Notes under the pieces: generated by a model
Told to the model about the DNA's origin: nothing
The model's input: the letters and a program-made list of their open reading frames with translations, nothing else
The model's database searches: none
In this document: positions 1,663 through 34,624 of the stretch, one piece after another
How the letters are laid out: each line of letters starts with the position of its first letter
Numbering within the stretch: position 1 is the first letter of the stretch
Translations under genes and position numbers: made by a program
Assembly: GCA_943356525.1 (NCBI GenBank)
Contig: CALRFG010000001.1
Location: 7,278 to 71,277 of the forward strand
Source: Candidatus Nomurabacteria bacterium
GTDB taxonomy: Bacteria; Patescibacteriota; Minisyncoccia; Phycocordibacterales; CAIZLB01
Direction: 5' to 3'
DNA length: 64,000 bases

Positions 1663-2982
1663 TTAAAAATTAAACGATTCAAGGCAGTCTCGATAATAAA
1701 AATTTTTATTAACTATCAAATCACAAATTTTTCTATCTTTATTTATTATTGCCGAATTTATAAAACATACATTTACGACATCTTCTGTTTTAAATTGATT
1801 GCACAAGTTGGGATCATCTATTGTTTTATTTTCCAAAATAATTAGTTTACATATTTCTGGCGTAATATAAGTATAAGTATTTTTACTAATTTTTTCACAA
1901 ATTTTTGTATCTTTTTTTGTGAATGCTACGTTAAAATAACATTTATCTTTAAGATAACTATCATTCTGTGATTCACAAACAGACTCACCCCTTTGTATTA
2001 TGGCAAAATTAATCTTACATTCACTCTGTAACCCTTTAGATACCTCATTTCGAGAAGAAACGTCAGCAAAAGTATTTATTTGTTCACAGATCTTTAATCT
2101 ATCATCATAGTTTTTATCCGTGATTTTTCTATCCATAGTATTTTCTATAAAATCCTTATAAAACAAGTCTTTGCTTTCAAAATTAGGTTTAATAATTTTT
2201 AATGAAAAATATCGATTTGAATTTTTATAATTTATTTTAAAATAAAAGACATTTTCATTCCAAAAAAAATCTGCGAGAGAAGCGTCGTAATGACTACTTC
2301 TTACATATTTTCCAATTTTTATATATCTACCATCTTTGGTAAACAAAGCCAAAACATCTTCCTTGTTGTATGATGTGAATGAGAATCTGGTAGAATTTTG
2401 TTTATCAGAATAACTTAATATAGCAAAATCTCCATATGTATTCACTGTAGTATTATTTGTATAGGTATCAGCGTCACTTATTTTTTTAATCTTATTCTCA
2501 CTAAGATCAAAATAAAAAGTATCCCCCTCATATGACCATTCACTTTCATTTTTTAAAATTACAGCGTAATCAAAAATTTTATAAGAATAATTTGGTACAT
2601 ACGGAGAAAGTAAATATTCATCGTTTTCTGTCTTTAGTGTATTTGGTGGATAAAGAAAGTTCTTTTTTATATAATTAAATTTATTTTTTGAAAATTTACC
2701 TTCTGCCTCTTCAGCAAGAACACCAGTTTTTTTCATATCCATGAAATCTGAAATAAAAATTTCTTCAATAGATACTATAGAATTATCAAAAAATAAATTT
2801 GTACCCTCTAATCTTTTTAACCCCTCGCCATTATTTGATGGTGTGAAAAAAAAGTAAAAAATACTCAGAACTAAAAACAAGATAATTAATCCTATACGCA
2901 AAGATAAAATATCTTTTATTTTAATTTTTTTCTTCATAACCAAAATTATATCATATAAAAAAAATATCCTAAGTAATCTCAA
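1663..2982 (-). CDS. hypothetical membrane-anchored/secreted protein with Cys-rich C-terminal repeats
   Basis: 439-aa ORF with an N-terminal hydrophobic anchor (the internal Met MKKKIKIKDILSLRIGLIILFLVLSIFYFFF is the likelier start, ~2934). The C-terminal third has many Cys in a repeated C-x-K-I/D-x-N pattern. No recognisable catalytic motif. Confidence 0.55.
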   Translation of the reverse strand: MRLLRIFFLYDIILVMKKKIKIKDILSLRIGLIILFLVLSIFYFFFTPSNNGEGLKRLEGTNLFFDNSIVSIEEIFISDFMDMKKTGVLAEEAEGKFSKNKFNYIKKNFLYPPNTLKTENDEYLLSPYVPNYSYKIFDYAVILKNESEWSYEGDTFYFDLSENKIKKISDADTYTNNTTVNTYGDFAILSYSDKQNSTRFSFTSYNKEDVLALFTKDGRYIKIGKYVRSSHYDASLADFFWNENVFYFKINYKNSNRYFSLKIIKPNFESKDLFYKDFIENTMDRKITDKNYDDRLKICEQINTFADVSSRNEVSKGLQSECKINFAIIQRGESVCESQNDSYLKDKCYFNVAFTKKDTKICEKISKNTYTYITPEICKLIILENKTIDDPNLCNQFKTEDVVNVCFINSAIINKDRKICDLIVNKNFYYRDCLESFNF

Positions 2983-3335: not shown

Positions 3336-6317
3336 CTAAATCTCTGAAATCTCAGGACTTATACGGCAAATAGTAGATGATGAAAGATTTACACCTGGAC
3401 CTCTACAATTAACAGTTATTTTATGATTTGTTTTTAGATTATCAACACTTACAAATCCAGAATTTGAACCGTTGATAGGATCTAAATTAATTATTGGATT
3501 TGTAGGTGTTAATATGTTTTCGCCGATAGATACGACATCACAACTTGTATCATTTGGCATATTTTCTATATCCCAACTTACAACACATTTTCCACCCTTA
3601 TCAACAATTACATTAGGTTCTTTATTTAAGATTATCGAAGCTGAGTTTTGGGATCCAATATCATCTATTGCAGGAATAATACATGTTGTATTAACCGTTC
3701 TAAGCGTATTTGAATCTCTACTTTTATCAATTATATTAACAGGTATGGTTTGCTTTGATGTTGTCTTATTTATTGTAAACGAATTAGTTATAATTTTTTG
3801 GTTATCTTTATAATATTCTATTGTCGCACCATTTAAAGGACTTGCTATCAATATCACATTTGACACCGAAGGGGAGTTATTGTCGGAAACTGAACAACTT
3901 AGAAACAATTTACATTCTTTACTGTCTTTTTCATTGCTGACAGTTTCATTTGTTGTTTTATTGAAGCAAACCATATTTTGGGAATTACACCCACACTCAA
4001 TTTCATCGGCAGGAGGAGTTTCTATATTATTGACACATTGACCTTCAGGGTTTTTTATATAGTTTGTATCAATATAGTCACCGTCCAATGTTTTTTTTCT
4101 TATTATGTTACCAAATTTAATATAATCACCTTCTAGGTTTGGACAAACTGAAGTTATTTCACCAGGACAAACTCCTGCACCTGCAACACATACTTCTTGT
4201 GAATATATTCTAAAAGTTGAGGTGTTACCCCGAGCTTGATTTTGTAACATTATATAAAACTTATGTTTTCCTGGGGTTGTAGGCATTTTATATGTACCAG
4301 CATTTATATTATAGTTACTACTTCTTTCATGACCTCCAGCATTATAATAACCATTACCCCACGCTGAGGAAGCCCATAAATATTTACCTGATTTACCTTG
4401 AACGTTAGTATTTGTAAAACCAGTTTGAGGATAGGTTTTATATGGACCTTTAATAACCTCTGGATGACTTTGAACGCCACCTATTGAACTTATAGCAGTC
4501 CAAAAAGAAGCAAGTCTAGGTAAAACTCGTGGCCCCCACGTATCACCAGAATAAAATAAAACATTAATCCATTGAATTGTTGTATATCTTACTGATCTGA
4601 AATTTCTTGAAGTTACCTGTTGCCAAATATGTGCATCGTATATACCATTTAGATTAAAATTCCACCAATCATCACTAGGACCAAATAGATTGTTATTAAA
4701 TCCAGCATTATTACAAGCAACATAAGATGCATTAACCTGTAAAGTAAAGTCTTCACCCGGTTGATATATTCTTACATCACTAGGTTGAGGTGAGATAAAA
4801 GAATTTAATTTAAAATTTTGGGAAGAGTTAGCTTGTGGGGCTAACTCTGTTGTAAAAGCCTCCACTTTTTGAGAGATTAAAAATAAAGGAGTTAGTGCAA
4901 TTAAAAATAGCAAAGTACTTTTAGGCACTTTTTTATTTATTTTTTTTCTGAAAAATATAATTATAATAAATATTATAGGTAATAATGAAAGTAGAATAAT
5001 ATATGTGATTCTTATAGAATATTCTCCTAAATAAGTATTTTCTAATTCTTTCTCTGAAGGTAGATTAGTTTCATATCTTGATAAAATATCACCTTCTTCA
5101 TCAACCATCTCAGCTTTTATAATAAAACCGCTTACTGTTTTTGATATATCAACCTCAATAGCAGTAGTACTTGCTGCCGATAAATTTATTTGTGTCTGAC
5201 CTTCGCCTATAATATTATTCTTTCTATCAAAAATAGATAATTTTATCATTGCGGTTTTATTCACAGCAGTATTTTGAGTGTTACTAGCATTTTCTGTTGA
5301 ATCTTTTTCTATTTGATCGTAAAAAAACTTAGCAACTTCCTCAGAAGACATACTTGATATATCAACACCTTCAGGTTCACTTGTATCAAAATCATCAGTC
5401 TGATCATTTACAGCATTAATATCAAAAAAATCTTCATTTGTTATATTTAAAGGAATTCCAGCATATTCAATATTAACTTTAATTTTTTCTCCCTTCTTCG
5501 CGTCCAAAGAAGATGTATTTATGTTTAATATTGTACCTATATTACCTTCTAAAATATATCTAAAATAGGAAGATGGTATATAGTATTCGAGATTTTCAAA
5601 TGTTAAAACCCCAGCATAGACGAGAGGATTTATATTTGTTGGTAATTTCAATCTATACTCCTTGTTAGAATCCAATTCAATATCATCTAGTATGATGGTT
5701 TCTAAGGGTTTATTATTCAAAGTTGTTCTATTGTATAATTCTATTTTAGGTTTAACAGTAAGTCCTTTAATACCTATCTTGTCTATTTTGAATTTGATAA
5801 AAATATTTCCATCTTTTTTTACTGTTGGACCTTGTTGAGGGAAAAAATTTTTTCCTTCGGCTTCAATATTAAAATTATTTAAAGTTAAATTTTTTTTATT
5901 TTTTTTACTTTTTATAATTATAGGTTTTTGAATCTGATTTAAAAAAGTTCCATCTTTTGAGTAAACTGTAACAATAAAATCTGCTTTTGAGTTTAATTCG
6001 GTATTTAAAATATGTTCAAAATTAAAAACCTTATTAGATTTTGATTCTAAATAAATATTTTTTCCATATTGGAAATCGCTTTCTATTATTTGATTATCTA
6101 AACTTGTGGATATAAAAGTTTGTATATAAATATCTGACTCTCTTGAGGTTGAATTATTAAATATTCTAACGGAACCTTTAATAATTTCTTTTTCATTGTA
6201 TTCTATTTTATCTATAAATAAATCATTTACATAAACCCCTTCATCTTGGGCTAGTATTGTATTTTTATTACTAAAAATACAAAAAATAAATATGGAGATT
6301 AAAAATATTTTTTTCAT
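3336..6317 (-). CDS. giant surface protein, paralog 1: signal peptide, N-domain, 2-TM hairpin, C-domain, then conserved C-terminal domain
   Basis: 993-aa ORF. Signal peptide MKKIFLISIFIFCIFSNKNTILA. Mid-protein TM (YIILLSLLPIIFIIIIFF), then RKKINKK, then a second signal-like hydrophobic segment (LLFLIALTPLFLISQKVEA). C-terminal ~90 aa (VDKGGKCVVSWDIENMP...ICRISPEISEI) is shared with the genes at 6375 and 8064. Confidence 0.8.
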   Translation of the reverse strand: MKKIFLISIFIFCIFSNKNTILAQDEGVYVNDLFIDKIEYNEKEIIKGSVRIFNNSTSRESDIYIQTFISTSLDNQIIESDFQYGKNIYLESKSNKVFNFEHILNTELNSKADFIVTVYSKDGTFLNQIQKPIIIKSKKNKKNLTLNNFNIEAEGKNFFPQQGPTVKKDGNIFIKFKIDKIGIKGLTVKPKIELYNRTTLNNKPLETIILDDIELDSNKEYRLKLPTNINPLVYAGVLTFENLEYYIPSSYFRYILEGNIGTILNINTSSLDAKKGEKIKVNIEYAGIPLNITNEDFFDINAVNDQTDDFDTSEPEGVDISSMSSEEVAKFFYDQIEKDSTENASNTQNTAVNKTAMIKLSIFDRKNNIIGEGQTQINLSAASTTAIEVDISKTVSGFIIKAEMVDEEGDILSRYETNLPSEKELENTYLGEYSIRITYIILLSLLPIIFIIIIFFRKKINKKVPKSTLLFLIALTPLFLISQKVEAFTTELAPQANSSQNFKLNSFISPQPSDVRIYQPGEDFTLQVNASYVACNNAGFNNNLFGPSDDWWNFNLNGIYDAHIWQQVTSRNFRSVRYTTIQWINVLFYSGDTWGPRVLPRLASFWTAISSIGGVQSHPEVIKGPYKTYPQTGFTNTNVQGKSGKYLWASSAWGNGYYNAGGHERSSNYNINAGTYKMPTTPGKHKFYIMLQNQARGNTSTFRIYSQEVCVAGAGVCPGEITSVCPNLEGDYIKFGNIIRKKTLDGDYIDTNYIKNPEGQCVNNIETPPADEIECGCNSQNMVCFNKTTNETVSNEKDSKECKLFLSCSVSDNNSPSVSNVILIASPLNGATIEYYKDNQKIITNSFTINKTTSKQTIPVNIIDKSRDSNTLRTVNTTCIIPAIDDIGSQNSASIILNKEPNVIVDKGGKCVVSWDIENMPNDTSCDVVSIGENILTPTNPIINLDPINGSNSGFVSVDNLKTNHKITVNCRGPGVNLSSSTICRISPEISEI

Positions 6318-6368
6318 AATAATATTATATATTATCTACTTTTTAAGTGCTAATTAAATTAGTTAATT
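6318..6368 (-). promoter_or_regulatory. duplicated upstream/promoter region (copy 1) of the paralog family
   Basis: The ~45 nt immediately upstream of the start codon (AATAATATTATATATTATCTACTTTTTAAGTGCTAATTAAATTA) is near-identical to 7907..7951 upstream of the 7906 gene start (2 mismatches). AT-rich with TATA-like boxes. Confidence 0.5.
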
Positions 6369-6374
6369 AAAATC

Positions 6375-7547
6375 TTATATTTCGTTAATTTCTGGGTTTA
6401 CACGACATACAGCAGACTCAGTCAGAGAAGGATTTAGGTTAACTCCTGCACAGGTTATACTAAACTTTGTATTTGACTGTATATCACTTTGGGTATATGA
6501 ACCTGTTGACGTACTGTTTACGGTAGCGTTAACTTTAATACCATCTCGTTTTAAAGTACACTCTGTGCCTGGTGGCATATTTTCTATTTTCCAAGACAAT
6601 TTACAGTCTCCACCTTTATCTAAGGTTACTAGGGGTTTTTTTGTTATTTTTATTGATGGTTTAGCTACCGGATCTTTTGGTTTGGTGATTGTTTCACTTG
6701 TATCTGCTTCACATTTAACAGTTTTTGATGTGTTATCAAAACTATCAGTCACAGTAACATCCATAGTCTGAAGTGACTTTGTATTTGGAATAGTGTATGT
6801 ATATGATGTTCCAGGATATTGTATTTTAGTATCTTTACCTGTACTGGTATACGTAATTGTTGCTATGTTCTGAGAAGGCGTTACTGTAAATTCAACATTT
6901 AAATTATTAATACTAGCATCACAGACTGCACTTAGACCGCACATAGGGGCGTTTGCGTCTCTTGTTTCCTCCTCACTGTTCCGTGTACCCACCCAATCTC
7001 TACCAACGCAGGCATAAGTTACGGGAGATAAACATTCACCATTTATCCCTTCTAATCCTTCAGGTATCTCTGTTTGTATTTCATTAATGTTTGAACATAA
7101 ATCTGGAATAGTTAGTACACAGTCACCGTTAACGTCAAGCTCATATCCTTCAGGTATCTCTGTTTGTATTTCATCAATATTTGGACATACATCGGAGACC
7201 TCTTCTTCAACGCAAAGACCTGCCCCTGTTACACAATATGTATGCTCAAAAAGTATATATGCTGAAGGTTTATAATATGTTAATTGTTTACCTTGTTCAG
7301 ATGTACCGTAGAGAGGGTTATAGTAACTTGAACAATACTCTCCATAACCAGCACTACTGGGGTCAGCATAACCCCCAGAACTCCCAGGACTCCAGAACCC
7401 ACAGGATGAAATAACAATAGGTCCGTTATAATATTCTCTAGGTTCATACGTATTCTCGACTGTGTTTCTGTATGCGTATATATATATATAGCATGTTTTC
7501 CAGGTATAGTTGATGCTTTGTACGGTTTTGTATATACACCAAATATA
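6375..7547 (-). pseudogene. paralog 2, C-terminal portion (frame 0), open stop-to-stop from 7547 with no start of its own; part of a frameshifted gene
   Basis: Hand translation upstream of the annotated GTG at 6992 continues in frame: ...SSCGFWSPGSSGGYADPSSAGYGEYCSSYYNPLYGTSEQGKQLTYYKPSAYILFEHTYCVTGAGLCVEEEVSDVCPNIDEIQTEIPEGYELDVNGDCVLTIPDLCSNINEIQTEIPEG...GTRNSEEE... This aligns with paralog 1 (RIYSQEVCVAGAGVCPGEITSVCPNLEGDY...). It ends with the shared CTD ...AVCRVNPEINEI. Confidence 0.6.
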
Positions 7548-7906
7548 TTACGCGTTACTTTAGTAGCGTTTTTAACATTTCTCCACCATACAACATCTGT
7601 TATGTAACCAAATACATTAAACGAGTATGCATTTTCTGTTTCATTTTTAACATAAAAATCAACAGTATACGTTTCATTATTACAATCAGATAGAGAAGTG
7701 AAGAAAGTTAGATTAAAAGCCTCGCCTGGTGAATAGTTTTTACCTAAACGGTAATCATAAGGTGAAGATACTGATGATATCCTAAATTCTGGAAAATCTG
7801 ATGATCTAACCGGATAAGCCTCAGCATTAACCCAAACATAACCTGACAAAAGCAACATTACAAACATTAATATTTTCTTATTTAAAAATAAAAACATTTT
7901 TTTCAT
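7280..7906 (-). pseudogene. paralog 2, N-terminal portion (frame 2): signal peptide plus start of C-domain; apparent frameshift joins it to the 6375..7547 frame
   Basis: 208-aa ORF MKKMFLFLNKKILMFVMLLLSGYVWVNAEA... Its residues ...YKASTIPGKHAIYIYTHTETQ align with paralog 1 ...YKMPTTPGKHKFYIMLQNQ. The homolog then continues in the other frame, so a +/-1 frameshift lies around 7400-7450. Confidence 0.6.
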
Positions 7907-7951
7907 AATAATATTATATATTATTTACTTTTTAAGTACTAATTAAATTAA
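7907..7951 (-). promoter_or_regulatory. duplicated upstream/promoter region (copy 2)
   Basis: AATAATATTATATATTATTTACTTTTTAAGTACTAATTAAATTA is near-identical to 6318..6362. Confidence 0.5.
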
Positions 7952-8055
7952 TCAATTTTCACTGACCTCATATCCATATCCTCAACATAATCAAATCTTA
8001 TTACAATATCTGGTTTTATTTCATCACTTTCTATAACACTAGGCCATTCTATAAA
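7947..8055 (-). repeat. duplicated fragment of the tsaE 3' end (last ~35 codons plus stop), a remnant of segmental duplication
   Basis: ~109 nt match 10932..11040 (the tsaE C-terminus ...IEWPIIIENDEIKPDIVIRFDYVEDVDMRSVKID-stop) with a few mismatches. It sits between the 943-aa gene stop and the paralog 2 promoter copy. Confidence 0.75.
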
Positions 8056-8063
8056 CACATGAA

Positions 8064-10895
8064 TTAAATCTCATTAATAGTCGGGTTTACACGACAGATA
8101 CTAGAAGATACTATGGTTGTACTTGTGTCTCCTGAACAGCTTATGGTGTATCTTGTGTTTTGATATATTGGAGGTGATATCCATTTACCAGAGTTACCTG
8201 AAAGCGATTCAGGAGTTATGTCGCCGCCACTCAATGTACACGTCATACCAGTAGTAGGTCTATTTATTATCTCCCAGTCAAGTGTACAAGTACCACCTTT
8301 ATTTAAAGTTATGGCTGGGGTTTTTTTAATGATGATTTCAGTTAAGGCTGTTGTGTTTTCAACAGAACAAGTTGCGTTTGATTTAGAACCATCAGAATCA
8401 GTTAAATTCACCGTTAGTGACAGAGGTGTTCCTGGTGTTGTAGTTGTTGAATATATGTAGGTGTATGGTGGAGATGATTTTAGTGTAGATACATTTGGTG
8501 AGTGTGTATATGTTACATTTCCTATTCTGTTAATAGGGGTAAATGTAAAAAATGTCTTATCTAATGAGGTTGTTGGTGAACAATATGAATTGAAAGCACA
8601 TTGTGGAGAGTTTAGTGTTGTAGTTGTTGCTACCCCACCTGTTGTACATGTATTTGTTCGAGTATTGTTACATGAACATACCTGTTGGGGGGTAGTTGTG
8701 GCTTCGCATGTATTATCTGTTGCTGATTCAATCCACACACTATTTAAATTACAAGTTCTATCAGATTGACAAACTATCAAAGATTGAAAGAAAGGTGCTA
8801 TTGTTTTATATTTAGAATATGTGGTTGATGTGGCCACAAAAGTCCACAAAACATTATATGCTGGTATAACGGTATCATTTTTTGTTTTTTCCTCAACTTC
8901 ACCATTATATAAACCCTTACCGCTGTATTTATAAGATGATGAATCTACAAGCAATGGGTCTCTACAAGTAGCGTTTGATGTTAAACCTAGTTCTATTAGA
9001 CTGTATCCTCTAGTCCAAGAATCGGTGTCATGTCCGGTATTATATAACCTAAATACTACATTACACGAACCATCATAAGACATACTGGGATAATTTTCTT
9101 TATAGGCACCATAATAATATTTCTGAGAAGCACCTAGACTACTTGATTTTGCATATACATTACCAAATTTGAACTCAAAAATAGGAAATCTTATTTGCCA
9201 CCAAGAACTTGTTTGTTCCATCAAAGCATAAAAACCTTTATTTTGATTTTTTAAACTAGGTATATCAGCTGGGTTTATACCTAGATAATCACAAACATTT
9301 ACAGTTTGATCACTCCATGAACTAGTAGGGTGTTTTACAGGTGTCATGTACACACTACCTTTTATATATGTATCACTAAGACTTGTTGTACCGTCACTGT
9401 TTGTACATGTTGTTATAGATAATAAATTACTGTTATTTTCATAAGTATCAGTATTAACAACTCTAGATTTACACATAGATGGTTCAATCTTACCTGCTTC
9501 AATTACTCTAACTTTTGCACCCATAGTATTTGAATCAGCACCTTTGTATACAGATGTAACAATAACCTTACAACTACCATCATATGTTGCATAGTTAACA
9601 TTTCTTTTTCTTCCTCCTGGATCAAAAGTCACGGTACTTGCAGTACCTTTTTTAAAACTGAAAATGTGATACCTTTTTTTTAGCCAAGCTGAAGTAGCTG
9701 AATCAGAAATAACATAAAAGTTATCATTACTTTTAAGGTTACTCATATTAACACAAACATCAACAGTAATAGAAGCAGGACTAGAGGCTGTGGTTATAAT
9801 ATTACCAGTTGAAAAATTTTTTCTAACCCTAGCGTCAGTTGTTGAGCAACTCTCATTCTGTTGGCAAACAGATGTGGTTTTTATATCTTCAAGGCATGTA
9901 TCGGCAGGTTTGTTTACACCACCACAAGTTTCAACTGCTGAAATATTTGATGATACAAACAAAGCTAAAATTATTAGTAGTAACAAAAATAAACCAGCAA
10001 TCACCTTTTTACTTATTTTAGTTTTAAAAACAAAAAATAATATAACCATCAAGGCAATCATCATACCTAAAATTATATAATATATATTATTACTGTTTGT
10101 TTTTTTTAAATCAACAGTTTTAGATTGGGTCAATATTACTTGACCATCAATATCTTTTATGTCTATTTTTAATACAACTTCACCTTTTAGTTTTGATAAA
10201 GCATCTATGTTTTCATCAACAATAATACTACCTTCATTAAAAAACTTCTTATCTGATTCTTTTTTAAATATTTCAACACCTTCTTTTGTTAACGTAACAA
10301 CAATTTTATTATCCTGATCAGTATCAAATAAAGAAACATAGCCTATATTAGCCAATACGTTTGTATCCTCTATTATGATATCTGACGTTGTAAAACTATA
10401 AGCTGAATTTGACACATTAAATGAATAATCTAAATTTAATTTTTTATCACCTATTTCAATAGTTAAAATTAGGTCATATTTTCCACCTTCAAAATTTAAC
10501 GGTATTTTGATATTAATTTTATCATTTTCTAGAAACACCTCCTCAAAATATGTTTTATTTTCTTCTAAATATTGATTAAAACCTTCAATCTCTGTGTTTA
10601 TTTTTTGATTTGGTGTTTTTAATGAATAAACCAAATCCTTATTATCATTTTTAAAAATTTTCAAATCAATTTTAGGTTCAGTATCTTCGAATGAATTTTC
10701 TTTATTATCGTTAGTAAACGATATATTTAAGTTTGAATTTTTTGTCAAAGATATATTCTTTGATTCATCTTGTATAAATGAATCTGACTGTATTTTAAAA
10801 TTATCTTTAGAATATAAAACCAGTTCAGTGGAATAAATATTATTATTAATCAATAAATTTATTATTAATAAAAAAAATAAAGTGTATTTTCTCAT
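8064..10895 (-). CDS. giant surface protein, paralog 3 (same architecture: signal peptide, N-domain, 2-TM hairpin, Cys/Thr/Ser-rich C-domain, shared C-terminal domain)
   Basis: 943-aa ORF. Signal peptide MRKYTLFFLLIINLLINNNIYS. TM hairpin ...IYYIILGMMIALMVILFFVFKTKISKKVIAGLFLLLLIILALFVSS. CTD ...LNKGGTCTLDWEIINRP...ICRVNPTINEI. Confidence 0.8.
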   Translation of the reverse strand: MRKYTLFFLLIINLLINNNIYSTELVLYSKDNFKIQSDSFIQDESKNISLTKNSNLNISFTNDNKENSFEDTEPKIDLKIFKNDNKDLVYSLKTPNQKINTEIEGFNQYLEENKTYFEEVFLENDKINIKIPLNFEGGKYDLILTIEIGDKKLNLDYSFNVSNSAYSFTTSDIIIEDTNVLANIGYVSLFDTDQDNKIVVTLTKEGVEIFKKESDKKFFNEGSIIVDENIDALSKLKGEVVLKIDIKDIDGQVILTQSKTVDLKKTNSNNIYYIILGMMIALMVILFFVFKTKISKKVIAGLFLLLLIILALFVSSNISAVETCGGVNKPADTCLEDIKTTSVCQQNESCSTTDARVRKNFSTGNIITTASSPASITVDVCVNMSNLKSNDNFYVISDSATSAWLKKRYHIFSFKKGTASTVTFDPGGRKRNVNYATYDGSCKVIVTSVYKGADSNTMGAKVRVIEAGKIEPSMCKSRVVNTDTYENNSNLLSITTCTNSDGTTSLSDTYIKGSVYMTPVKHPTSSWSDQTVNVCDYLGINPADIPSLKNQNKGFYALMEQTSSWWQIRFPIFEFKFGNVYAKSSSLGASQKYYYGAYKENYPSMSYDGSCNVVFRLYNTGHDTDSWTRGYSLIELGLTSNATCRDPLLVDSSSYKYSGKGLYNGEVEEKTKNDTVIPAYNVLWTFVATSTTYSKYKTIAPFFQSLIVCQSDRTCNLNSVWIESATDNTCEATTTPQQVCSCNNTRTNTCTTGGVATTTTLNSPQCAFNSYCSPTTSLDKTFFTFTPINRIGNVTYTHSPNVSTLKSSPPYTYIYSTTTTPGTPLSLTVNLTDSDGSKSNATCSVENTTALTEIIIKKTPAITLNKGGTCTLDWEIINRPTTGMTCTLSGGDITPESLSGNSGKWISPPIYQNTRYTISCSGDTSTTIVSSSICRVNPTINEI

Positions 10896-10933
10896 ATACT
10901 AAATTATATCATTCTTTAAAAAAATACGTAGAA

Positions 10934-11347
10934 TTAATCAATTTTCACTGACCTCATATCCACATCCTCAACATAATCAAATCTTATTACAATATCTGGT
11001 TTTATTTCATCATTTTCTATGATAATAGGCCATTCTATAAATATAAGGTTTTCTTTATCTTCTAAATATTCTTCTATTCTTATCTTTTGTAAATCTTTAT
11101 AAGACTCCAACCTGTAAGCGTCTATGTGTATCAATTTTTTAAAATTTTCTATAGGAAATTCATAGCTTTTTAATATAGTAAATGTTGGACTTGTTATATC
11201 AATATTTAAATCTAGTTGCTTACACAGGTTTTTTGTAAAAGTTGTCTTACCAGAACCTAAATCACCCTGTAAATAAACAACAGTAGCCTTATCTTTGTTA
11301 GTTATAGATTTTAATTTTTTTATAAATTCTTCATAGATATTTTCCAT
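10934..11347 (-). CDS. tsaE: tRNA threonylcarbamoyladenosine biosynthesis protein TsaE (YjeE-like P-loop protein)
   Basis: 137 aa. Walker A GDLGSGKTTF, an SPTF motif, and the overall small YjeE architecture. Confidence 0.8.
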   Translation of the reverse strand: MENIYEEFIKKLKSITNKDKATVVYLQGDLGSGKTTFTKNLCKQLDLNIDITSPTFTILKSYEFPIENFKKLIHIDAYRLESYKDLQKIRIEEYLEDKENLIFIEWPIIIENDEIKPDIVIRFDYVEDVDMRSVKID

Positions 11348-11419: not shown

Positions 11420-12526
11420 TTAGATATTTTCTATAGTTAGTCTTTTTTTAGCTTGATAAATGAAGGCAAACACTGCTCCTAATATCAGAACCATAGTTGC
11501 AACCATGTAGTCAAAGAAACTTAAAGATAGACCTGTTGCAGGCAACTGACTTAGATAAACTCCTGATACAGGTGTTCCTGAAGTTATACCAGGTGTTAGA
11601 CTTACTGACGATCCACCAGTGTATGAAGGTGTGTATGAGTTGTAATAGTTTCCGTAAACAGAGTTATTGTTTTCAAAAGTAACATTACATGTTTTTGTAA
11701 TAATCTCTTGATCAGATCTTATTGTAATATTTATGTATTTTTTACCAGTTGTGTAAGATGTAAATGATGTAGATGCACCTGAAACACTGTTTATATCACC
11801 ACCCCATATGTAAGTATAGTTACCTATACCACCTGTTGCATAAGCCGTAGCTGTTACTGATTGACCAGGTCTAGGGTTTGATGGAGTTATTGTACAATAA
11901 CCATCTAACAAAACACGATTAGGGTTATGAACTACAGCATTACCAGTTGGGTTTGTATAAACATATACATTGTTATTGTTAACATTATTGTTTATAGCTG
12001 TAGCAGTTGATGATGAGTTTGAGTTTGAAGTTGAAGTTGAAGTCGAGTTTGATAGGTTGGTGTTTGTATTGGCGTTATTATTTGATGTAGTGTTTGATGA
12101 ATAGTTTGAATTAGGTATAAATGAAGATGTGTATGATGAACCATATGATGGTAAAGAGTATCCACTGTAATATGAACCACTGTATGATGGTAGAGAGTAT
12201 CCACTATAACTAGAACCACTATATGACGGCGTGTAGTAAGACGGAGTATATGATGATCCGTAGTTATATGATGGTGAAGAATATGAGGGTGAAGAATATG
12301 AAGGGGTGTATGATGGTGAAGAATAAGAATACACAGGAGAGTATGAGTAAGTACTTGGACCTGAATAACCATAATTTGAGGTATATCCACCACCAGTCAT
12401 GATACCAGGACCTCCAGTTCCTGAAAAAGAATTATCTTTTCCCGCGAAAACCACACCAGGTATCATAAATATAGCAAAAACTACCATAATTATTGTTTTT
12501 TTGATTTGTTTGTTTGTTTTTAACAT
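11420..12526 (-). CDS. LPXTG-anchored cell-surface protein with Ser/Tyr/Pro-rich repeats
   Basis: Signal peptide. Repeats of the form SPSYTPSYSSPSYSSPSY and YSGSYYSGYSLPSYSGS. C-terminal sortase signal LPATG, then a hydrophobic segment, then KKRL. Confidence 0.75.
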   Translation of the reverse strand: MLKTNKQIKKTIIMVVFAIFMIPGVVFAGKDNSFSGTGGPGIMTGGGYTSNYGYSGPSTYSYSPVYSYSSPSYTPSYSSPSYSSPSYNYGSSYTPSYYTPSYSGSSYSGYSLPSYSGSYYSGYSLPSYGSSYTSSFIPNSNYSSNTTSNNNANTNTNLSNSTSTSTSNSNSSSTATAINNNVNNNNVYVYTNPTGNAVVHNPNRVLLDGYCTITPSNPRPGQSVTATAYATGGIGNYTYIWGGDINSVSGASTSFTSYTTGKKYINITIRSDQEIITKTCNVTFENNNSVYGNYYNSYTPSYTGGSSVSLTPGITSGTPVSGVYLSQLPATGLSLSFFDYMVATMVLILGAVFAFIYQAKKRLTIENI

Positions 12527-20727: not shown

Positions 20728-21855
20728 TTATTTATTCATAGGCATAACCATATAAACATAACTATTATCCTCAAGGGGTTTTATTACTGTTGGTGTTGTT
20801 TTACCACTGATTTCTATACTTATTTTGTCAGATTTAATTTTATTTAAAAAATCTGATAAGTATTTATGATTATAGTTTTGGGACAAAGACTCCCCTTTTT
20901 TAAATATTTCCTGCTTTGAAAAAGACTCACCTATTTTATTATTTTTAGAATAAAAATCTATTTCTTTGTCACCTATATCAATTTTTACATAATTAAAATC
21001 ATCGGAGAAAATATTTGATGCTTTTAATGCATTTAAAATATCTTCTGTTGACATCTCTATCTCTGTAATAAATTTATTTGGAATAATTGCTTTATAGTTT
21101 GGATACAAACCTGAAACAGTTCTAACACATAATAAACTCTCTGTTGTTTTTACACAAAATAAACCCTTTTCTAGAAAAATAGATATTGAAATATTTGGAT
21201 AAATTACCTTCATTAAATCATTTAAGGTTTTTGCTGGTATAAGTATTTGCTTAAAATCATCTATATTTTTTATATTATCTTTATTTATAATTTTTCTTTT
21301 TTCAACTAGTCTAAATCCATCAGTGGCTACAAAACTAAATACATCACCCTCATAAGACATAAGGACACAAGACAGCTCTGGTTTTATACTAGATATAGCT
21401 GCTGCAAAAGAAACCGATTGTATTCCATCAATTAATATATCTGAATTTATTATTAAACTGTTTTCACTTTGACTAAGGTTAAAATTTTTAATATCAGGAT
21501 AAGTATTAGAGGAAACTATTTGTATATTTGATTCCTGATTTTTAACTTTTATTTTTATAGAGTTTTCTAGTATTTCAATAATTACGTTTTCATTTTTATT
21601 GAATAGATTTAAATAACTTAGTAAAAGATTTGGATTTATACATATTTTCTTATTTTTACCTTCTGATATTGTTTTTATAAATATATCTTGTTTGTAAAAT
21701 ATATCTAGATTATAGCTAGTTATTCTCAATGTTGATTCATCTGTAATCTCGAATAGTATATTCTCTAAAACTGGTTGATTTGGGTTTCTTGTGGTTATTT
21801 TAGCTGCTTTACCTATAACATCTATCAATAATTCATTTATTGTTTCTATTTTCAT
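20728..21855 (-). CDS. dnaN: DNA polymerase III beta subunit (sliding clamp)
   Basis: Immediately downstream of dnaA. N-terminus MKIETINELLIDVIGKAAKITTRNPNQPVLENILFEI matches the DnaN pattern (MKF.I.R..L...L......R...PILSN.LLE). The track start at 21876 adds 7 residues. Confidence 0.8.
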   Translation of the reverse strand: MKIETINELLIDVIGKAAKITTRNPNQPVLENILFEITDESTLRITSYNLDIFYKQDIFIKTISEGKNKKICINPNLLLSYLNLFNKNENVIIEILENSIKIKVKNQESNIQIVSSNTYPDIKNFNLSQSENSLIINSDILIDGIQSVSFAAAISSIKPELSCVLMSYEGDVFSFVATDGFRLVEKRKIINKDNIKNIDDFKQILIPAKTLNDLMKVIYPNISISIFLEKGLFCVKTTESLLCVRTVSGLYPNYKAIIPNKFITEIEMSTEDILNALKASNIFSDDFNYVKIDIGDKEIDFYSKNNKIGESFSKQEIFKKGESLSQNYNHKYLSDFLNKIKSDKISIEISGKTTPTVIKPLEDNSYVYMVMPMNK

Positions 21856-21876
21856 ATTTAAATTAATTATACACAA

Positions 21877-22099
21877 TAATAGCCATTATGTATGTTGATA
21901 TCTTAATAAGTCTAATATACTTATATACTTCAACCTTATTTGATAATTTGAATGTTGATAATCTAGTTGATAGCTGTGGATAAAATAGGTGTATAACTAT
22001 GTATATGTGGATAACTGTGGATAAAACCTATACTTATACAGTGTTTATACAAACTTATATACAGTATATAAACAAGATATACACAAGTTTATACACAAA
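21877..22099. promoter_or_regulatory. oriC: oriC candidate: dnaA-dnaN intergenic region with DnaA boxes and an AT-rich unwinding region
   Basis: Perfect DnaA boxes TGTGGATAA at 21975-21983, 22006-22014 and 22016-22024. Variant TTATACACA at ~22088. Flanking sequence is very AT-rich. Confidence 0.7.
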
Positions 22100-23473
22100 C
22101 TATATACGAAGCATTGATTTGATTTGGTTGATCTCCTCAAATAAAACTTGGTTTGAAACCAAATCAGCCTTAACTTTGTCATATGCGTGTATAACCGTTG
22201 TATGATCCCTCTTTCCTAGTTTTTCACCTATATTTGATAAAGAATAACCAAAATATTCCCTTAATATAAACATTAAAACCTGCCTAGGTTTAACTATCTC
22301 TTGTTTTCTGTTCTTTTCTATTATAGATTTTTCATCTATTTTGTAAAATGAAGCCACAGCCTTTAAAACATCCTTTAAGGAGATGTTTCCTGAGGTTTTT
22401 ACAATGTTTTTTGTTAAGTTTTTAACCTCATCGAGACTTAAAACCCTATCTTTTATTTGAGATTGTATTGATATATTGTTTATTATACCCTCTATTTCCC
22501 TTATACTACCATCCAAACCTTCTGCTAGGTACTGTATAGTCTCTTGGTCTAGTTTAGTGTCTCCTTGCTCCAGTTTAGAGTTAATAATAGCTATTTTAGA
22601 TTCAGTGTCTATCCTAGGTATATCTATAATCATACCTTGTGAAAACCTTGATTTTAAACGACTTTCTAGATTCTGTAGATAATTAGGATGCTGATCTGAT
22701 GAAAAGATGATTTGTCTCTGATTGTCATATAAAAAATTGAATAAATGGAACAATTCCTCCTGAGTTTTTTCTTTGTTTGATAAAAACTGAATATCATCCA
22801 TAATCAAAAGGTCATATTTCTTGTACTTTTCCTTGAAAAGGTTAGATTTGTTATTTTGTAAAGAAGATATATAGTCATTTGTAAACCTTTCGCTTGTTAC
22901 ATAAAAAACCTTCTTACTAAGATTATTTTTATAATAATTTCCAACAGCCTGCATAAGGTGAGTCTTCCCTACCCCTGTACTACCGTAAAAAAATAAAGGG
23001 TTATAAAATCCAGGTTTTTTAATAATAGCCTGAGCTGAAGCATTTGCTAATTCATTAAAAGAACCCACAACAAAAGAGTCGAATATGTATTTTGGGTTCA
23101 AGTTATCATTTAAATCTATATAGTTATCCTTCAAAGGTAACTCATTTTTCTTATCATAAACCTTTTCACCCCCTTTTTCTTCTATTCTATCGCTGTTTTT
23201 AAGATCTTTTTCTTTTTTAACTATTGTTGGAGATATTATAAATTCGATATTTTTTATATTTTCATGTTTCTTTCTAAGAATATTGAGTATTTTTGTATAT
23301 GCCTTACTTTTAATCCAGTCTATAGCAAAAGAGTTTTGTACTAAAACCTTCAAAACATGATCCTCATATGAGTCAACTTTTGTGTTTTTAAGCCAAGAAT
23401 TATAACCTGAAGGAGTAACCTCTGGTTTTATTTCTTCTAATGTTTTTTTCCATATAATGTTAATTTCTTCCAT
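22100..23473 (-). CDS. dnaA: chromosomal replication initiator DnaA
   Basis: AAA+ Walker A GSTGVGKTHLMQAVGNYY, Walker B LLIMDDIQFL, C-terminal DNA-binding helix-turn-helix (KLGKRDHTTVIHAYDKV). Confidence 0.9.
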   Translation of the reverse strand: MEEINIIWKKTLEEIKPEVTPSGYNSWLKNTKVDSYEDHVLKVLVQNSFAIDWIKSKAYTKILNILRKKHENIKNIEFIISPTIVKKEKDLKNSDRIEEKGGEKVYDKKNELPLKDNYIDLNDNLNPKYIFDSFVVGSFNELANASAQAIIKKPGFYNPLFFYGSTGVGKTHLMQAVGNYYKNNLSKKVFYVTSERFTNDYISSLQNNKSNLFKEKYKKYDLLIMDDIQFLSNKEKTQEELFHLFNFLYDNQRQIIFSSDQHPNYLQNLESRLKSRFSQGMIIDIPRIDTESKIAIINSKLEQGDTKLDQETIQYLAEGLDGSIREIEGIINNISIQSQIKDRVLSLDEVKNLTKNIVKTSGNISLKDVLKAVASFYKIDEKSIIEKNRKQEIVKPRQVLMFILREYFGYSLSNIGEKLGKRDHTTVIHAYDKVKADLVSNQVLFEEINQIKSMLRI

Positions 23474-23500
23474 GTGGATAAATTATATACTTGTGGATAA
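23474..23500. promoter_or_regulatory. two DnaA boxes at the dnaA promoter
   Basis: TGTGGATAA at 23474-23482, abutting the dnaA ATG, and at 23492-23500. Confidence 0.6.
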
Positions 23501-23549
23501 CTTTTTTTACCTTGTTTTTTCTATAAAATAATGTATATTGTTATATATT

Positions 23550-23693
23550 ATGTCATTCACTTATAATCCAAAGAAAAAGAAAAGAGCAACAACTCATGGT
23601 TTTTTAGCTAGATCCAAAACACATGGTGGTAGAAGGGTGTTACAAGCAAGAAGAAGAAAAGGCAGAAAAAACCTTTCAACTGTTGGTTCATAA
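23550..23693 (+). CDS. rpmH: 50S ribosomal protein L34
   Basis: Hand translation [47 protein letters not shown]. Absent from the ORF track because it is short. Confidence 0.9.
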
Positions 23694-23737
23694 TCATTTA
23701 TATAGTGATTTGTTGTATAATAATATAAAAAACAGTC

Positions 23738-24028
23738 ATGCTTTACACTATAAAAACAATAAACCAGAAAGAAAAACCTGGTTTTTTTGTTTATTTTGTA
23801 GCAAAAAAGAAAGTGTTTAAAAAAGCTGTACTGCGCAACAAGGTAAAAAGAATAGCCAGACATGCCTTTTTTGAGGCCAAGAAGAGTCTTTTATCTACCA
23901 AAAACCAAACCTTTCCAGATAAACAGGTTATTTTTTTCTTAGAAAATGGTATTATTCAAGAATCCTTTGAAAACATAGTTAATTCTTTTACAAACGATAT
24001 TTTAAAAATAAGTAATAAAAACAAATAA
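23738..24028 (+). CDS. rnpA: ribonuclease P protein component
   Basis: 96 aa with KAVLRNKVKRIARHAF (the RnpA RNR motif). Sits between rpmH and yidC, the conserved order. Confidence 0.8.
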   Translation: MLYTIKTINQKEKPGFFVYFVAKKKVFKKAVLRNKVKRIARHAFFEAKKSLLSTKNQTFPDKQVIFFLENGIIQESFENIVNSFTNDILKISNKNK

Positions 24029-24037
24029 AACACAACA

Positions 24038-24775
24038 ATGTTCCATACAATATTTTATAAACCAATGTACAATGCTTTGATATTTATATTGGACATATTA
24101 CCAAGCCATGATGTTGCTTTAGCTGTTATAGTTTTGACTACTTTGATTAAAATAGTACTTCTCCCCTTGTCTCATAAGATGTTTATAACCCAAATACTAC
24201 AGAAAAAAATACAACCGATCATATCTAAGATACAAGAAGAGTATAAAGATAATAAACAAATGTTAGGTGTAAAAATGCTAGAGGTATATAAAGAGCATAA
24301 ACTTAACCCTTTCTCTTCTCTTTTATTAATGATAATACAAATACCAATCGTCCTTGCGTTATATTTTGTTTTTGCAAACGGGGGGTTACCTGAAATAATC
24401 CTAGCTGATCTATACCCATTTGTTTCAAGTGTAAATAATATTAAATATGTATTACTAGGTATAGACTTTACTAAAGCCAACGTTTTAGTTGGTTTCGTTG
24501 CAGGGTTGGCTCAATATATACAAATAAGGCTATCTTTGCAAAACATGACACCTATTGACCCAAAAAAACCTATATCTGAAATGAAACCAGAAGAAATGAT
24601 GCAGAAACAAATGAGTTTTATGATGAAATATTTTATACCAATACTTATATTTATAGCATCACTTCAAGTTTCAGCCGCAGTTGCCTTATACTGGATAGTC
24701 TCATCTATTTTTATGATAGTTCAAGAGTTATATTTCAGAAATAAATATAAAGTTGAATTATTAGCTGTTAAATAA
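24038..24775 (+). CDS. yidC: membrane protein insertase YidC (short, Gram-positive type)
   Basis: 245 aa, multi-TM, YidC/Oxa1 fold signature. Conserved rpmH-rnpA-yidC synteny. Confidence 0.8.
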   Translation: MFHTIFYKPMYNALIFILDILPSHDVALAVIVLTTLIKIVLLPLSHKMFITQILQKKIQPIISKIQEEYKDNKQMLGVKMLEVYKEHKLNPFSSLLLMIIQIPIVLALYFVFANGGLPEIILADLYPFVSSVNNIKYVLLGIDFTKANVLVGFVAGLAQYIQIRLSLQNMTPIDPKKPISEMKPEEMMQKQMSFMMKYFIPILIFIASLQVSAAVALYWIVSSIFMIVQELYFRNKYKVELLAVK

Positions 24776-24870: not shown

Positions 24871-26190
24871 CTAGAGGTCGTATTTCCACAAAGTTAAAGT
24901 CTCTTTATCTTGAAATAACAGATATTTGTTTGTACTAGATATGTTCATTTTATATATATCTATAGGTACTATAACCTGATCTTGTAATGAGACAATAAGT
25001 CTAAAGCCCCCTGTTTCAGCATCAATCGACCATATATTATCACCAAAAGATATATTATTTTTATACCATGCGTCTGGATAAGGTGCTTGCTCTAGTCTTT
25101 GTGGTATACCACAGTATATTATTTTAGAATCAGAGCCCCAAACACATTTATCTACTATGGTGGCTTGATTTAAATACGTTGAATTTTTCGCTTTTATGTC
25201 ATATATGAATGTTTCCAAAGTGTTATTTAATATTTCATTGTATATAACCTTCTTGCCATCAGGTGACATAAGTGTGTTAAAACCGTATTTTTCACCCAAA
25301 ATATAAGTGTTTTTAGAGTTACCGTCTGGGTTAAGTGTGAATAAATAACCTTTAAAATAAGCCGAAGGTTTTGTTGTCAAAGCAACTACTGTTTTATTTA
25401 CGTACTGTGATAACCACTCTGATATAGTAGTATTTATTGTATTTATCCTAACAACACCATCTATATTAGAAACAACACCACCACCAGATTTGTTTATAAA
25501 ATAGAATATTTTTTTAATAGATCCTAAAAAAGATATATTATTTGCATCAATGTTTATATTTTTAACCTCAGCTTTATAAATAGTTGATGATGAAAACTCC
25601 TTTATTAGCTTCATGTATGCAGTAGAGATTGTCTCATTATCATTAGCTAAAGTTCTTATAATCAAAGAAGAACTATCTGCAAAAAATACCTCTTCAGCTC
25701 CAGGTGAGGTATAGTTAGAAATCTTTACAATATCTGTTGTAGAAGCTATATTTTCATATATATGACCTGTTTTACGATCCCAAAAGTAAATATATTCTTG
25801 ATTTTTTAATATTTTTTTATTTTTAATATCTTTTACAATATCCTTTGTTGATGTTGATTTATTTGTACTTGTTGATATAACCTCTATATCTTTATATACA
25901 AAATCAAAACCTGAAACAGGTTCATTCCATAGTTGTATAAGTCTTGGTTTTTCTGATGCTGTTTCTGTTGGATTTTCTACAACCTCTTCATTTGCAAATG
26001 TTTCAACGTTTGTAGATGTTGAAACTCTTGTTTGAAAAGGGGTTCTATTTCTATCTATATTTGTAACATCCCCACCATTTGTCTTTATTAGTGTTTTAGA
26101 TTTTTGAAAAAAACTATAACCAAAATATACACCTAAGCCTAATATTAGTATTGTTAAAGTAAAAATTATTTTTTTTATAGTATTTTTCAT
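24871..26190 (-). CDS. hypothetical membrane-anchored extracytoplasmic protein
   Basis: 439 aa with an N-terminal signal anchor. Downstream partner of the 3D-domain paralog. Confidence 0.5.
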   Translation of the reverse strand: MKNTIKKIIFTLTILILGLGVYFGYSFFQKSKTLIKTNGGDVTNIDRNRTPFQTRVSTSTNVETFANEEVVENPTETASEKPRLIQLWNEPVSGFDFVYKDIEVISTSTNKSTSTKDIVKDIKNKKILKNQEYIYFWDRKTGHIYENIASTTDIVKISNYTSPGAEEVFFADSSSLIIRTLANDNETISTAYMKLIKEFSSSTIYKAEVKNINIDANNISFLGSIKKIFYFINKSGGGVVSNIDGVVRINTINTTISEWLSQYVNKTVVALTTKPSAYFKGYLFTLNPDGNSKNTYILGEKYGFNTLMSPDGKKVIYNEILNNTLETFIYDIKAKNSTYLNQATIVDKCVWGSDSKIIYCGIPQRLEQAPYPDAWYKNNISFGDNIWSIDAETGGFRLIVSLQDQVIVPIDIYKMNISSTNKYLLFQDKETLTLWKYDL

Positions 26191-26215
26191 ATTTTTTGTT
26201 TAAAATGTTTTTTTG

Positions 26216-27472: not shown

Positions 27473-27494
27473 GTGTTGATTATATCAGATTATT
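26678..27494. repeat. ~817-bp near-perfect direct repeat, copy 1 (5' part of the gene plus promoter)
   Basis: Identical to 28557..29373, as shown by the identical overlapping ORFs 27018..27206 and 28897..29085, 1879 bp apart. Ends 22 nt upstream of the ATG. Confidence 0.85.
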
Positions 27495-28059
27495 TCAATT
27501 GATTGTATTGTTTTGTTATTTCTTGTTTTTTTGCTGATGAAAGATTTTCATACTCACCACTTAATTCTACATACCATTGAAATATTAAATAAACATTTGC
27601 TTTAGTTTTTTTAATGTCACTGCTTGTATTTATAATTTTTATCAATTCTGATGAGTTTTTTGATATAAAAGGTCTCCAAGCTTCCAACAAAACCTCATTA
27701 TCTGCCGATTCAGATAAAGATAAAGCTTGACTTAATAGCTCAGGGTTTTTTGTTATCTCCCAGTTGAATAAAATTTTATTTAGATTGTTATATTCAACAT
27801 CTTCAACGCCGTCCTTGTAACTTACAACATTGACATCTAAATTATTTTTTAACAATGTTGATGTATCATCTAATTTTTTATCACCCAATGTTTCATTTTT
27901 TCCAAACACTACCCTATCAGATATAACTGTTTGTGTACTTGTTGATACCTCTATGTTTAACTGTGTTTGTTTTTTATTATTTACGTAAAAATAAGAAAAA
28001 ATTATTAAAAACGATATTAATATTATTATGATTATTCTTATAAATTTTGTATTTAACAT
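27490..28059 (-). CDS. hypothetical membrane-anchored protein between the two paralogs (candidate immunity/partner protein)
   Basis: 189 aa with an N-terminal TM anchor. Directly downstream of paralog B. Confidence 0.45.
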   Translation of the reverse strand: MLNTKFIRIIIIILISFLIIFSYFYVNNKKQTQLNIEVSTSTQTVISDRVVFGKNETLGDKKLDDTSTLLKNNLDVNVVSYKDGVEDVEYNNLNKILFNWEITKNPELLSQALSLSESADNEVLLEAWRPFISKNSSELIKIINTSSDIKKTKANVYLIFQWYVELSGEYENLSSAKKQEITKQYNQLK

Positions 28060-28070
28060 ATTTTTATTTA

Positions 28071-29351: not shown

Positions 29352-29373
29352 GTGTTGATTATATCAGATTATT
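28557..29373. repeat. ~817-bp near-perfect direct repeat, copy 2
   Basis: See 26678..27494. Confidence 0.85.
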
Positions 29374-30382: not shown

Positions 30383-30401
30383 GTTATAATTATATCAGAT
30401 T

Positions 30402-32629: not shown

Positions 32630-32638
32630 ATGTATATA

Positions 32639-33262: not shown

Positions 33263-33335
33263 GGGCGGCTAGAGAGAATCGAACTCTCGACTCAGGATCC
33301 ACAAACCTGGGTTTTACCACTAAACTATAGTCGCC
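33262..33335 (-). tRNA. tRNA-His (GTG)
   Basis: Cloverleaf folds. Extra 5' G-1 pairs with discriminator C73. Anticodon loop TTGTGGA. T-arm GAGAG-TTCGATT-CTCTC. One A-C mismatch in the acceptor stem. Confidence 0.75.
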
Positions 33336-33380
33336 ATACCTATATTTATAGCAGATATATAGGTATTATTCAATTTTTTC

Positions 33381-33806: not shown

Positions 33807-33810
33807 ATTG

Positions 33811-34614: not shown

Positions 34615-34624
34615 AGTTTTTTAA

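Follow-up and report, generated by a model that had tools for sequence, protein, structure and literature searches.

A terminal immunoglobulin-like domain with a conserved C-terminal tail in surface proteins of the candidate phyla radiation: a possible docking end

C-terminal modules of secreted proteins

The closest described counterparts of the proteins considered here are type IV pilus tip adhesins. In the large Sec-secreted proteins PilC/PilY1, MshQ, and CpaL, the last ~6 to 12 residues dock through β-strand addition, and retention depends on them, with the extreme C-terminal β-strand completing the β-sheet of a PilK-type minor pilin (PMC13533445). Here we analyze three tandem minus-strand genes, A, B, and C, in a 64,000-nucleotide stretch of Candidatus Nomurabacteria bacterium (contig CALRFG010000001.1, positions 7,278 to 71,277, of assembly GCA_943356525.1), a stretch that we call the window and in whose coordinates features are given. 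The products belong to a family of the candidate phyla radiation (CPR)/Patescibacteria and end in a shared immunoglobulin-like (Ig-like) C-terminal domain (CTD) that closes in a six-residue tail, P-x-Φ-x-E-x-COOH (Φ, hydrophobic). We tentatively read this module and tail as a docking end that retains a secreted subunit on the cell.

The likeness to the pilus adhesins is one of design. Like PilC/PilY1, MshQ, and CpaL, members of this family are large, Sec-secreted, Cys-rich, and adhesin-like, with a variable N-terminal side and a conserved C-terminal side; in both cases, there is a short conserved C-terminal peptide free of any transmembrane (TM) segment, which in the known proteins provides non-covalent mounting and here may do the same. 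Unlike PilC/PilY1, the CPR proteins have no β-propeller and no sequence homology to that family, their last domain is Ig-like, their genes are mostly outside pilus loci, and their partner is a TM-anchored protein that is not a pilin. No PilY1 or propeller Pfam match was found, and a pilus-operon location was seen in 1 of the 11 genomic contexts examined. Membership in the PilC/PilY1 family is not supported, and what we borrow from it is a possible mode of action only.

A second point of reference is the CTD of type IX secretion systems (T9SS) (Por_Secre_tail, TIGR04183/PF18962), likewise an Ig-like β-sandwich of ~70 to 100 aa that forms the very end of diverse secreted surface proteins without a TM tail. 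It differs from the domain described here in that the hosts are CPR bacteria rather than Bacteroidota, the domain body is homologous to internal repeats, and the end is marked by the P-x-Φ-x-E-x tail and two putative disulfides. Neither TIGR04183 nor PF18962 matches A, B, C, or any of 45 family CTDs in searches of Pfam and NCBIfam, and no T9SS component (PorV, SprA/Sov, PorU) is present among the 34 window open reading frames (ORFs) scanned or in the neighbor lists. A signal of the sortase, exosortase, archaeosortase, or rhombosortase type, with its motif, TM helix, and basic tail, is absent: none of the 68 proteins in which the domain is terminal has a hydrophobic segment near its C-terminus. 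The proteins end one residue past the tail Glu. A first-pass annotation of this DNA had put the domain forward as a candidate novel sorting or anchoring domain unlike the T9SS CTD, LPXTG, or PEP-CTERM signals, and the latter point is borne out, with no curated sorting-signal model in NCBIfam or Pfam matched.

The non-covalent wall anchors of Gram-positive bacteria (PG_binding_1, LysM, SLH, WxL, GW/SH3b) resemble the module in being C-terminal on surface proteins that bear a signal peptide and lack a TM tail. They differ from it in that a single Ig-like domain is present here, without a sequence match to any of them. In SoxY, also a single Ig-like β-sandwich, function resides in the conserved extreme C-terminal arm; the similarity is one of fold only, and the GGCGG carrier arm is absent from the tail found here, which reads P-x-Φ-x-E-x. 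An intramolecular isopeptide domain of the CnaA/CnaB type (Lys-Asn-Glu) was also considered and rejected, as the Asn that precedes the tail Pro is Ser in A and Val or Ile in distant members, the Glu being invariant. We found no described CPR C-terminal signal in the literature and no paper on the terminal domain or its motif.

The terminal domain, its tail, and the wider family

Gene A (993 aa; 3336..6317, minus strand, in the ORF list) is identical to database protein P0004, and gene C (943 aa; 8064..10895, minus strand) to P0003. Gene B (6375..7906, minus strand) would encode ~510 aa if repaired, its 3' part being database protein P0002 (373 aa). The three ORFs end in ICRISPEISEI (A, stop at 3336), VCRVNPEINEI (B, stop at 6375), and ICRVNPTINEI (C, stop at 8064), and a six-frame translation of the window contains such ends at these genes only. 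On the minus strand, the CTD spans residues 894 to 993 plus the stop codon in A (3336..3638), the last 100 aa plus stop in B (6375..6677), and residues 844 to 943 plus stop in C (8064..8366); the corresponding tails, each with its stop, are P-E-I-S-E-I (3336..3356), P-E-I-N-E-I (6375-6395), and P-T-I-N-E-I (8064-8084). A three-way alignment of these ~100-aa domains has 24 invariant columns at 35 to 38% identity. The synonymous codons of the three tails differ (Pro cct/cca/ccg, Glu gag/gaa/gag, Ile att/ata/att, and stops tag/taa/taa), arguing that the tail is conserved by protein-level selection and not by recent gene conversion.

The motif [LV][ND]KGG.C.[LV].W.I.N.P...C ... [ST][IV].C.G ... 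CR[VI][NS]P[ET]I[NS]EI and four conserved Cys residues, which the first-pass annotation had singled out, are present in all three proteins over ~95 to 100 aa. Its companion claim, that the upstream domains are unrelated, has to be given up: A and B are homologous throughout, with residues 466 to 993 of A aligning end to end with residues 2 to 510 of reconstructed B (BLASTP, E 5e-33), and all three proteins share their last ~200 to 230 residues. The region common to A and C, and to B and C, places a Cys-rich/β domain before the ~95-aa terminal domain. This second conserved domain lies at 3639..4031 (minus strand) in A, as delimited by BLASTP of A763-993 against C728-943 and by the family consensus, and at 8367..8714 (minus strand) in C, and the two-domain C-terminal module is also seen in the family consensus. 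Further upstream, the N-terminal parts of A and C align weakly (BLASTP, E 1.5e-7).

We built a profile from the three CTDs and ran it in a full HMMER scan of 1.84 billion cluster representatives. It matches 109 proteins at an E value of ≤1e-3 and 45 at ≤1e-10, which places the motif far beyond chance. The search advised with the first-pass annotation thus reaches well past the window proteins and into a widespread CPR family: named source organisms are all CPR/Patescibacteria, comprising Parcubacteria- and Saccharibacteria-labelled metagenome-assembled genomes (MAGs) and one 'Patescibacteria group bacterium' protein. Among the 108 sequences retrieved, the domain forms the extreme C-terminus of 68, ending P-x-hydrophobic-x-E-x-COOH, and none of these 68 has a hydrophobic segment near its C-terminus, in keeping with the earlier remark that A, B, and C have no TM tail.

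Tail statistics were taken from the 66 terminal sequences of at least 100 aa, anchored on the Glu. This residue is present in every one and is followed by exactly one residue in at least 59; position -4 is Pro in 51 and position -2 is one of I, V, F, and Y in 54. The final position is free (I in 23, N in 21, F in 5, followed by K, L, Q, R, T, D, E, V, and S), and the final pair is uniformly -EI in the window and -EN in MAG GFS_1662, with the nearest relatives of B and C also ending in -EI. The only invariant columns of the 45-sequence alignment are a Trp, one Cys, and the tail Glu. Cys1 and Cys4 co-occur perfectly, both being present in 57 sequences and neither in 9, and Cys2 and Cys3 occur in 65 of the 66. 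This pattern implies two disulfides, with probable pairing of Cys1 with Cys4 and Cys2 with Cys3, and thereby points to a disulfide-bonded, extracytoplasmic domain. The tail is restricted to family genes in ~186 kb made up of the window and loci L001-L011, being found in none of the other ORFs of at least 100 aa (211 scanned in all).

The family proteins carry Sec signal peptides and are diverse and adhesin-like. Modules upstream of the CTD are of extracellular types (fn3 in 12 of 52 proteins, also CARDB, DUF285, PKD, TSP3, and EPTP), no enzyme domain was found there, and no LPXTG motif, lipobox, or C-terminal TM segment is present on the tail-bearing proteins. Searches with A, B, C, and the 45 family CTDs gave no match to the terminal domain in Pfam, NCBIfam, or PDB sequences; in the last, the CTD profiles returned chance-level matches only and A and C none. 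The named bacterial Ig families of Pfam (Big_x, PKD, fn3, CARDB, DUF5979) stayed below threshold, the best being DUF5979 (E 0.0023, 7 of 45).

Structure prediction, also proposed at the outset as a check for a β-sandwich, returns one. AlphaFold2, run on the 45-sequence alignment, gives a six-strand β-sandwich (mean predicted local distance difference test score [pLDDT] 87.8, predicted template modeling score 0.77) in which no residue falls below a pLDDT of 50 and the last ten residues average 84. Foldseek matches are to Ig domains only (template modeling scores of 0.5 to 0.64), and the six-strand model fits the two-sheet Greek-key sandwich of ~7 strands that characterizes Ig-like (E-set) domains. 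The predicted body is a generic Ig-like fold.

The same domain also occurs away from the terminus. About 40 of the profile matches carry it internally, in tandem, as 3 to 11 matched copies and, in P0010, up to 29. When 28 internal copies were compared with the terminal-domain profile in hhalign, the match had a probability of 98.8% and an E value of 1e-16 over columns 8 to 103 of 107, with the tail columns outside it. This unnamed CPR tandem Ig-like repeat, with internal copies in P0007, P0010, P0031, P0032, P0053, and others, likewise has no Pfam match; it shares the Trp and the Cys2-Cys3 pair with the CTD body and differs in lacking the tail and the Cys1-Cys4 pair and in running into variable linkers. 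In multi-copy proteins, the P-x-Φ-x-E-x tail is on the last copy only. On these alignments, the terminus-specific features are the tail and, in the near family, the Cys1-Cys4 pair. Homology to internal tandem repeats argues that the body is a stalk module and not a dedicated sorting domain.

The idea of a sorting or anchoring domain therefore survives in part. What stands is a widespread, terminal CPR family that no known model describes and whose tail is specific to the terminus; what does not is the special status of the domain body, an ordinary Ig-like module that is also found internally. The annotation had named a match to a well-known family at non-terminal positions as grounds against its own proposal, and this applies in half: to the body, an ordinary Ig-like sandwich, but not to the tail, which is confined to the terminus. 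Two tail-less relatives, P0007 and P0039, combine 3 to 6 tandem copies of the Ig-like domain with PG_binding_1 peptidoglycan-binding domains, a possible functional substitute for the tail.

A two-subunit architecture and its genomic setting

From N- to C-terminus, gene A encodes a Sec signal peptide, an N-ectodomain, a first TM segment (TM1), a basic loop, a second hydrophobic segment that doubles as an internal signal peptide (TM2), a variable region, the Cys-rich/β domain, and the Ig-like CTD with its tail. C is fused in the same way but has an N-ectodomain and a middle region of another type (C-type). Like A and C, at least 18 further long members have two adjacent mid-protein hydrophobic segments separated by a short basic loop. 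In A, the putative membrane anchor TM1 lies at 4950..5003 and TM2 at 4857..4916; in C, they lie at 10026..10085 and 9936..10004, respectively (all minus strand). TM2 of A comprises an h-region and a V-E-A c-region and aligns in BLAST with the N-terminal signal peptide of B, and that of C ends in I-S-A. An [AVI]-x-[AS] site of signal peptidase I type directly follows TM2 in 20 of 20 fused proteins.

B, in turn, is a stand-alone C-subunit, paralogous to the second half of A. Two other C-subunits that stand alone, P0008 and P0015, each follow another gene, at gaps of 7 nt and 1 nt, respectively. These preceding genes are 40 to 44% identical to the N-terminal half of the fused protein P0011, and their products run from a signal peptide through an ectodomain to a TM segment and a basic tail. 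The separate adjacent half-genes, a Rosetta-stone counterpart of the A/C fusion, are at L012 2952-6234 and L013 3948-7179. As the two halves occur elsewhere as adjacent genes, A and C are gene fusions of a membrane-anchored N-subunit with a secreted C-subunit, and the Rosetta-stone relationship suggests one precursor cut into two surface subunits. The N-subunit is fused or adjacent in 10 of 11 near-family contexts, the exception being frameshifted B. Comparison of N-ectodomain classes by hhalign gives probabilities of 97.9% for A-type against P33-type and 95.2% for A-type against P11-type, by which the classes partly form one superfamily.

The history of the window genes can be partly read from their surroundings. 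Between C and B (7946..8055, minus strand) lies a duplicate of a piece of the tsaE 3' end, 95.5% identical over 110 nt to 10932-11041, and the 57- to 68-nt leaders in front of the start codons of A and B (6301-6368 and 7890-7957) are ~93% identical. In the related genomes L004 and L008, the syntenic position, which follows YkuD, x, and TsaE, has one gene copy. A, B, and C are thus paralogues produced by tandem segmental duplication, with the tsaE fragment and the near-identical leaders as its scars. To be read through from signal peptide (7906) to stop (6375), B requires a frameshift near 7440-7500, with frame 0 readable to ~7457 and the continuing frame from ~7454 down (frameshift zone 7440..7500, minus strand), and there is no intact ORF; the gene may be a pseudogene in decay, or else the assembly is in error here.

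A dedicated peptidase or transporter beside the genes, which the first-pass annotation had led us to look for, did not emerge. Across the 11 contexts, the sole constant partner is the membrane-anchored N-subunit, fused or adjacent; neighborhoods are otherwise housekeeping and differ between members, and no peptidase, transpeptidase, or transporter recurs. In both the window and L004, a YkuD-type L,D-transpeptidase is encoded two genes upstream. We rejected it as an attaching enzyme, as it belongs to a general syntenic block and is missing from the other contexts. Of the homologues of B, P0005 is the nearest (CTD body 65% identical), and its gene is part of a type IV pilus operon (L015 1627-14444) that consists of pilM, three unknown genes, pilB, a response regulator, pilT, P0005, pilC, and three pilin-like genes carrying GFT[LI][IV]E motifs. 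PilB-type ATPases are encoded 3 to 4 kb from the tail genes in the window and in L008.

Several other features of these loci deserve mention. Downstream of A, at 1663-2982 (minus strand), is the gene for a 439-aa protein that has a hydrophobic segment at its N-terminus, spaced Cys repeats at its C-terminus (…C…KD.CY…A…D…C…I…), and no Pfam match. On the other side, 11420-12526 (minus strand) encodes a 368-aa protein with long low-complexity tracts rich in S, Y, P, and N and a canonical sortase signal of LPATG, TM segment, and KKR, which indicates that the tail-bearing proteins exist side by side with a conventional sorting system. Elsewhere in the window (20728-24775 and 55722-64000), dnaN, dnaA, and yidC mark the replication-origin region, and a second PilB-type ATPase together with a pilin-like ORF (63689 to the window end) points to a locus for type IV pili at the far end. 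The window also encodes a TraG P-loop protein (30812-32629) in a block of large genes without Pfam matches (24871-38858), possibly a type IV secretion-like or conjugative cluster. Pairs of the P0011 type directly follow a ~958-aa TraG/VirD4-like ATPase (DUF8128/TraG-D_C) at L013 1010-3886 and L018 2576-5449. The window site that matches the position of the P0092 gene of L010 (beside ChlI, LysM-M23, UvrD, and KsgA) holds an unrelated protein.

A docking end and its alternatives

We propose that the proteins are made in two parts. The N-subunit would comprise a Sec signal peptide, an ectodomain, a C-terminal TM anchor, and a basic tail, and the secreted C-subunit a signal peptide, a variable adhesin-like region, the Cys-rich/β domain, and the terminal Ig-like domain ending P-x-Φ-x-E-x-COOH. 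In A/C fusions, the second signal peptide would sit inside the protein as TM2, where signal peptidase I probably still cuts after the A-x-A site, freeing the C-subunit outside the cell. The ~90-aa terminal domain would then be a disulfide-stabilized Ig-like stalk module, special for its position and its six-residue tail, and module and tail together could form the base end that holds the unanchored subunit on the cell non-covalently. The terminal peptide would dock by β-strand addition, or through a carboxylate or Glu contact, onto a conserved surface partner, most likely the co-encoded membrane-anchored N-subunit or, alternatively, a cell-envelope component; the variable region of the C-subunit would face outwards. 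We lean toward such docking and retention, tentatively, because a cleaved C-subunit would have no known anchor and because a conserved C-terminal side with a variable N-terminal side is the polarity usual in anchored adhesins.

Several observations weigh against this proposal. AlphaFold2 models the tail as coil packed on its own domain, which fits a simple cap too, and P0031, P0053, and P0059 end in the terminal domain without a tail. The free last residue speaks against a PDZ-type pocket for C-terminal peptides, a mode of recognition that we consider unlikely for this reason. The C-type N-ectodomain is weakly related to the others (30% in hhalign against A-type) and pairs with the C-type middle region in 7 of 7 cases, while the CTD is common to all classes; a class-specific contact with the N-subunit may sit outside the CTD, whose own partner may be generic. 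Finally, if TM2 is uncleaved, the TM hairpin already anchors the protein, and the CTD is its far end and not its base.

The last of these objections leads to a different picture, in which an uncleaved TM2 completes a TM-hairpin anchor and the CTD and tail are outermost, binding a conserved ligand on a host cell or substrate. The hairpin topology obeys the positive-inside rule and Ig-like domains often bind ligands, but in the split-gene versions the signal peptide is a plain cleavable one and an anchor is absent, signal-peptidase sites are kept in all 20 fused proteins, and a conserved tip over a variable membrane-proximal region would be atypical for adhesins, all of which makes a distal binding tip improbable. 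A better, if still rather unlikely, rival is that the tail is a structural cap without any sorting or docking role. It would consist of a linker remnant and the first half of a next A strand (P-x-I-x-I/L) that packs back on the last Ig-like domain, covering the surface that a following tandem domain would cover and placing the Glu in an intramolecular salt bridge. The homology of the body to internal repeats suits this explanation, as do the tail-like start of the domain A strand (P-x-I-x-[IL]-x-K-x-P), the confident modeling of the last ten residues from a deep alignment, the unconstrained last residue, and the failure to find a partner enzyme. However, the internal linkers have neither a conserved Glu nor P-x-Φ-x-E, and terminal copies such as those of P0031 and P0053 do without the tail. 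Nor does a cap have an obvious need for the chain to stop one residue past the Glu, as it does in at least 59 of 66 lineages at about 20 to 30% identity, or for a Glu conserved as strongly as the core Trp and Cys.

The remaining alternatives assign the tail to known kinds of machinery. A processed sorting signal, recognized by a dedicated CPR peptidase or transpeptidase and cleaved or covalently attached to the envelope (or both), in the manner of the T9SS CTD with PorU or of sortase, could account for an extreme C-terminus on diverse cargo, a β-sandwich the size of the T9SS CTD, and the fixed distance from Glu to terminus, with the YkuD-type enzyme upstream in the window and L004 as a conceivable agent. 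We nevertheless give it little credence: the substrate has no TM or hydrophobic stop-transfer segment to keep it at the membrane, the 11 contexts show no conserved T9SS, sortase-type, or other candidate enzyme beside members, YkuD is part of a general syntenic block, no curated sorting-signal model is matched, the body also occurs internally, and the same genome has its canonical LPATG signal on a neighboring protein. A type IV pilus tip adhesin, whose tail would complete the sheet of a PilK-type minor pilin as in PilY1/PilC, has a clear precedent (PMC13533445) and draws on the large, Sec-secreted, Cys-rich, adhesin-like character of the proteins, the pilus operon around P0005, and the nearby PilB-type ATPases of the window and L008. 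Yet ten of the 11 contexts are not pilus operons, the pilin-like gene of the window is ~47 kb off, and T2SSE genes are frequent in these genomes (two in the window), which makes proximity weak evidence. With a TM-anchored non-pilin N-subunit as the constant partner and neither a β-propeller nor PilY1 homology, a role at the pilus tip is unlikely.

We return, then, to retention by docking. In its specific form, this proposal holds that P-x-Φ-x-E-x-COOH on a terminal Ig-like domain is an unrecognized, TM-less retention signal of CPR bacteria that plugs into the membrane-anchored N-subunit or a pilin-like protein, the subunits being products of adjacent genes or of a single precursor that is split at its internal signal peptide. 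We regard this form as possible but somewhat doubtful. Neither the Ig-like fold nor the broad notion that surface proteins can end in a conserved module is new; what appears undescribed is the tail motif, its strict confinement to the terminus, and the organization in two subunits, separate or fused around an internal signal peptide.

CPR/Patescibacteria spend their lives attached to other microbes. If the retention proposal is true, it would describe a new way for wall-bearing epibionts without an outer membrane to display adhesins, and if the tail is a docking peptide, mounting by an extreme C-terminal β-strand would extend beyond type IV pilus tip adhesins. If the tail is only a cap, there are still two unmodelled domain families, the terminal domain and the internal Ig-like repeat, with which to annotate thousands of hypothetical CPR proteins. 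The family offers a searchable motif, a terminal Ig-like domain ending P-x-Φ-x-E-x, and a defined two-subunit architecture, split or fused.

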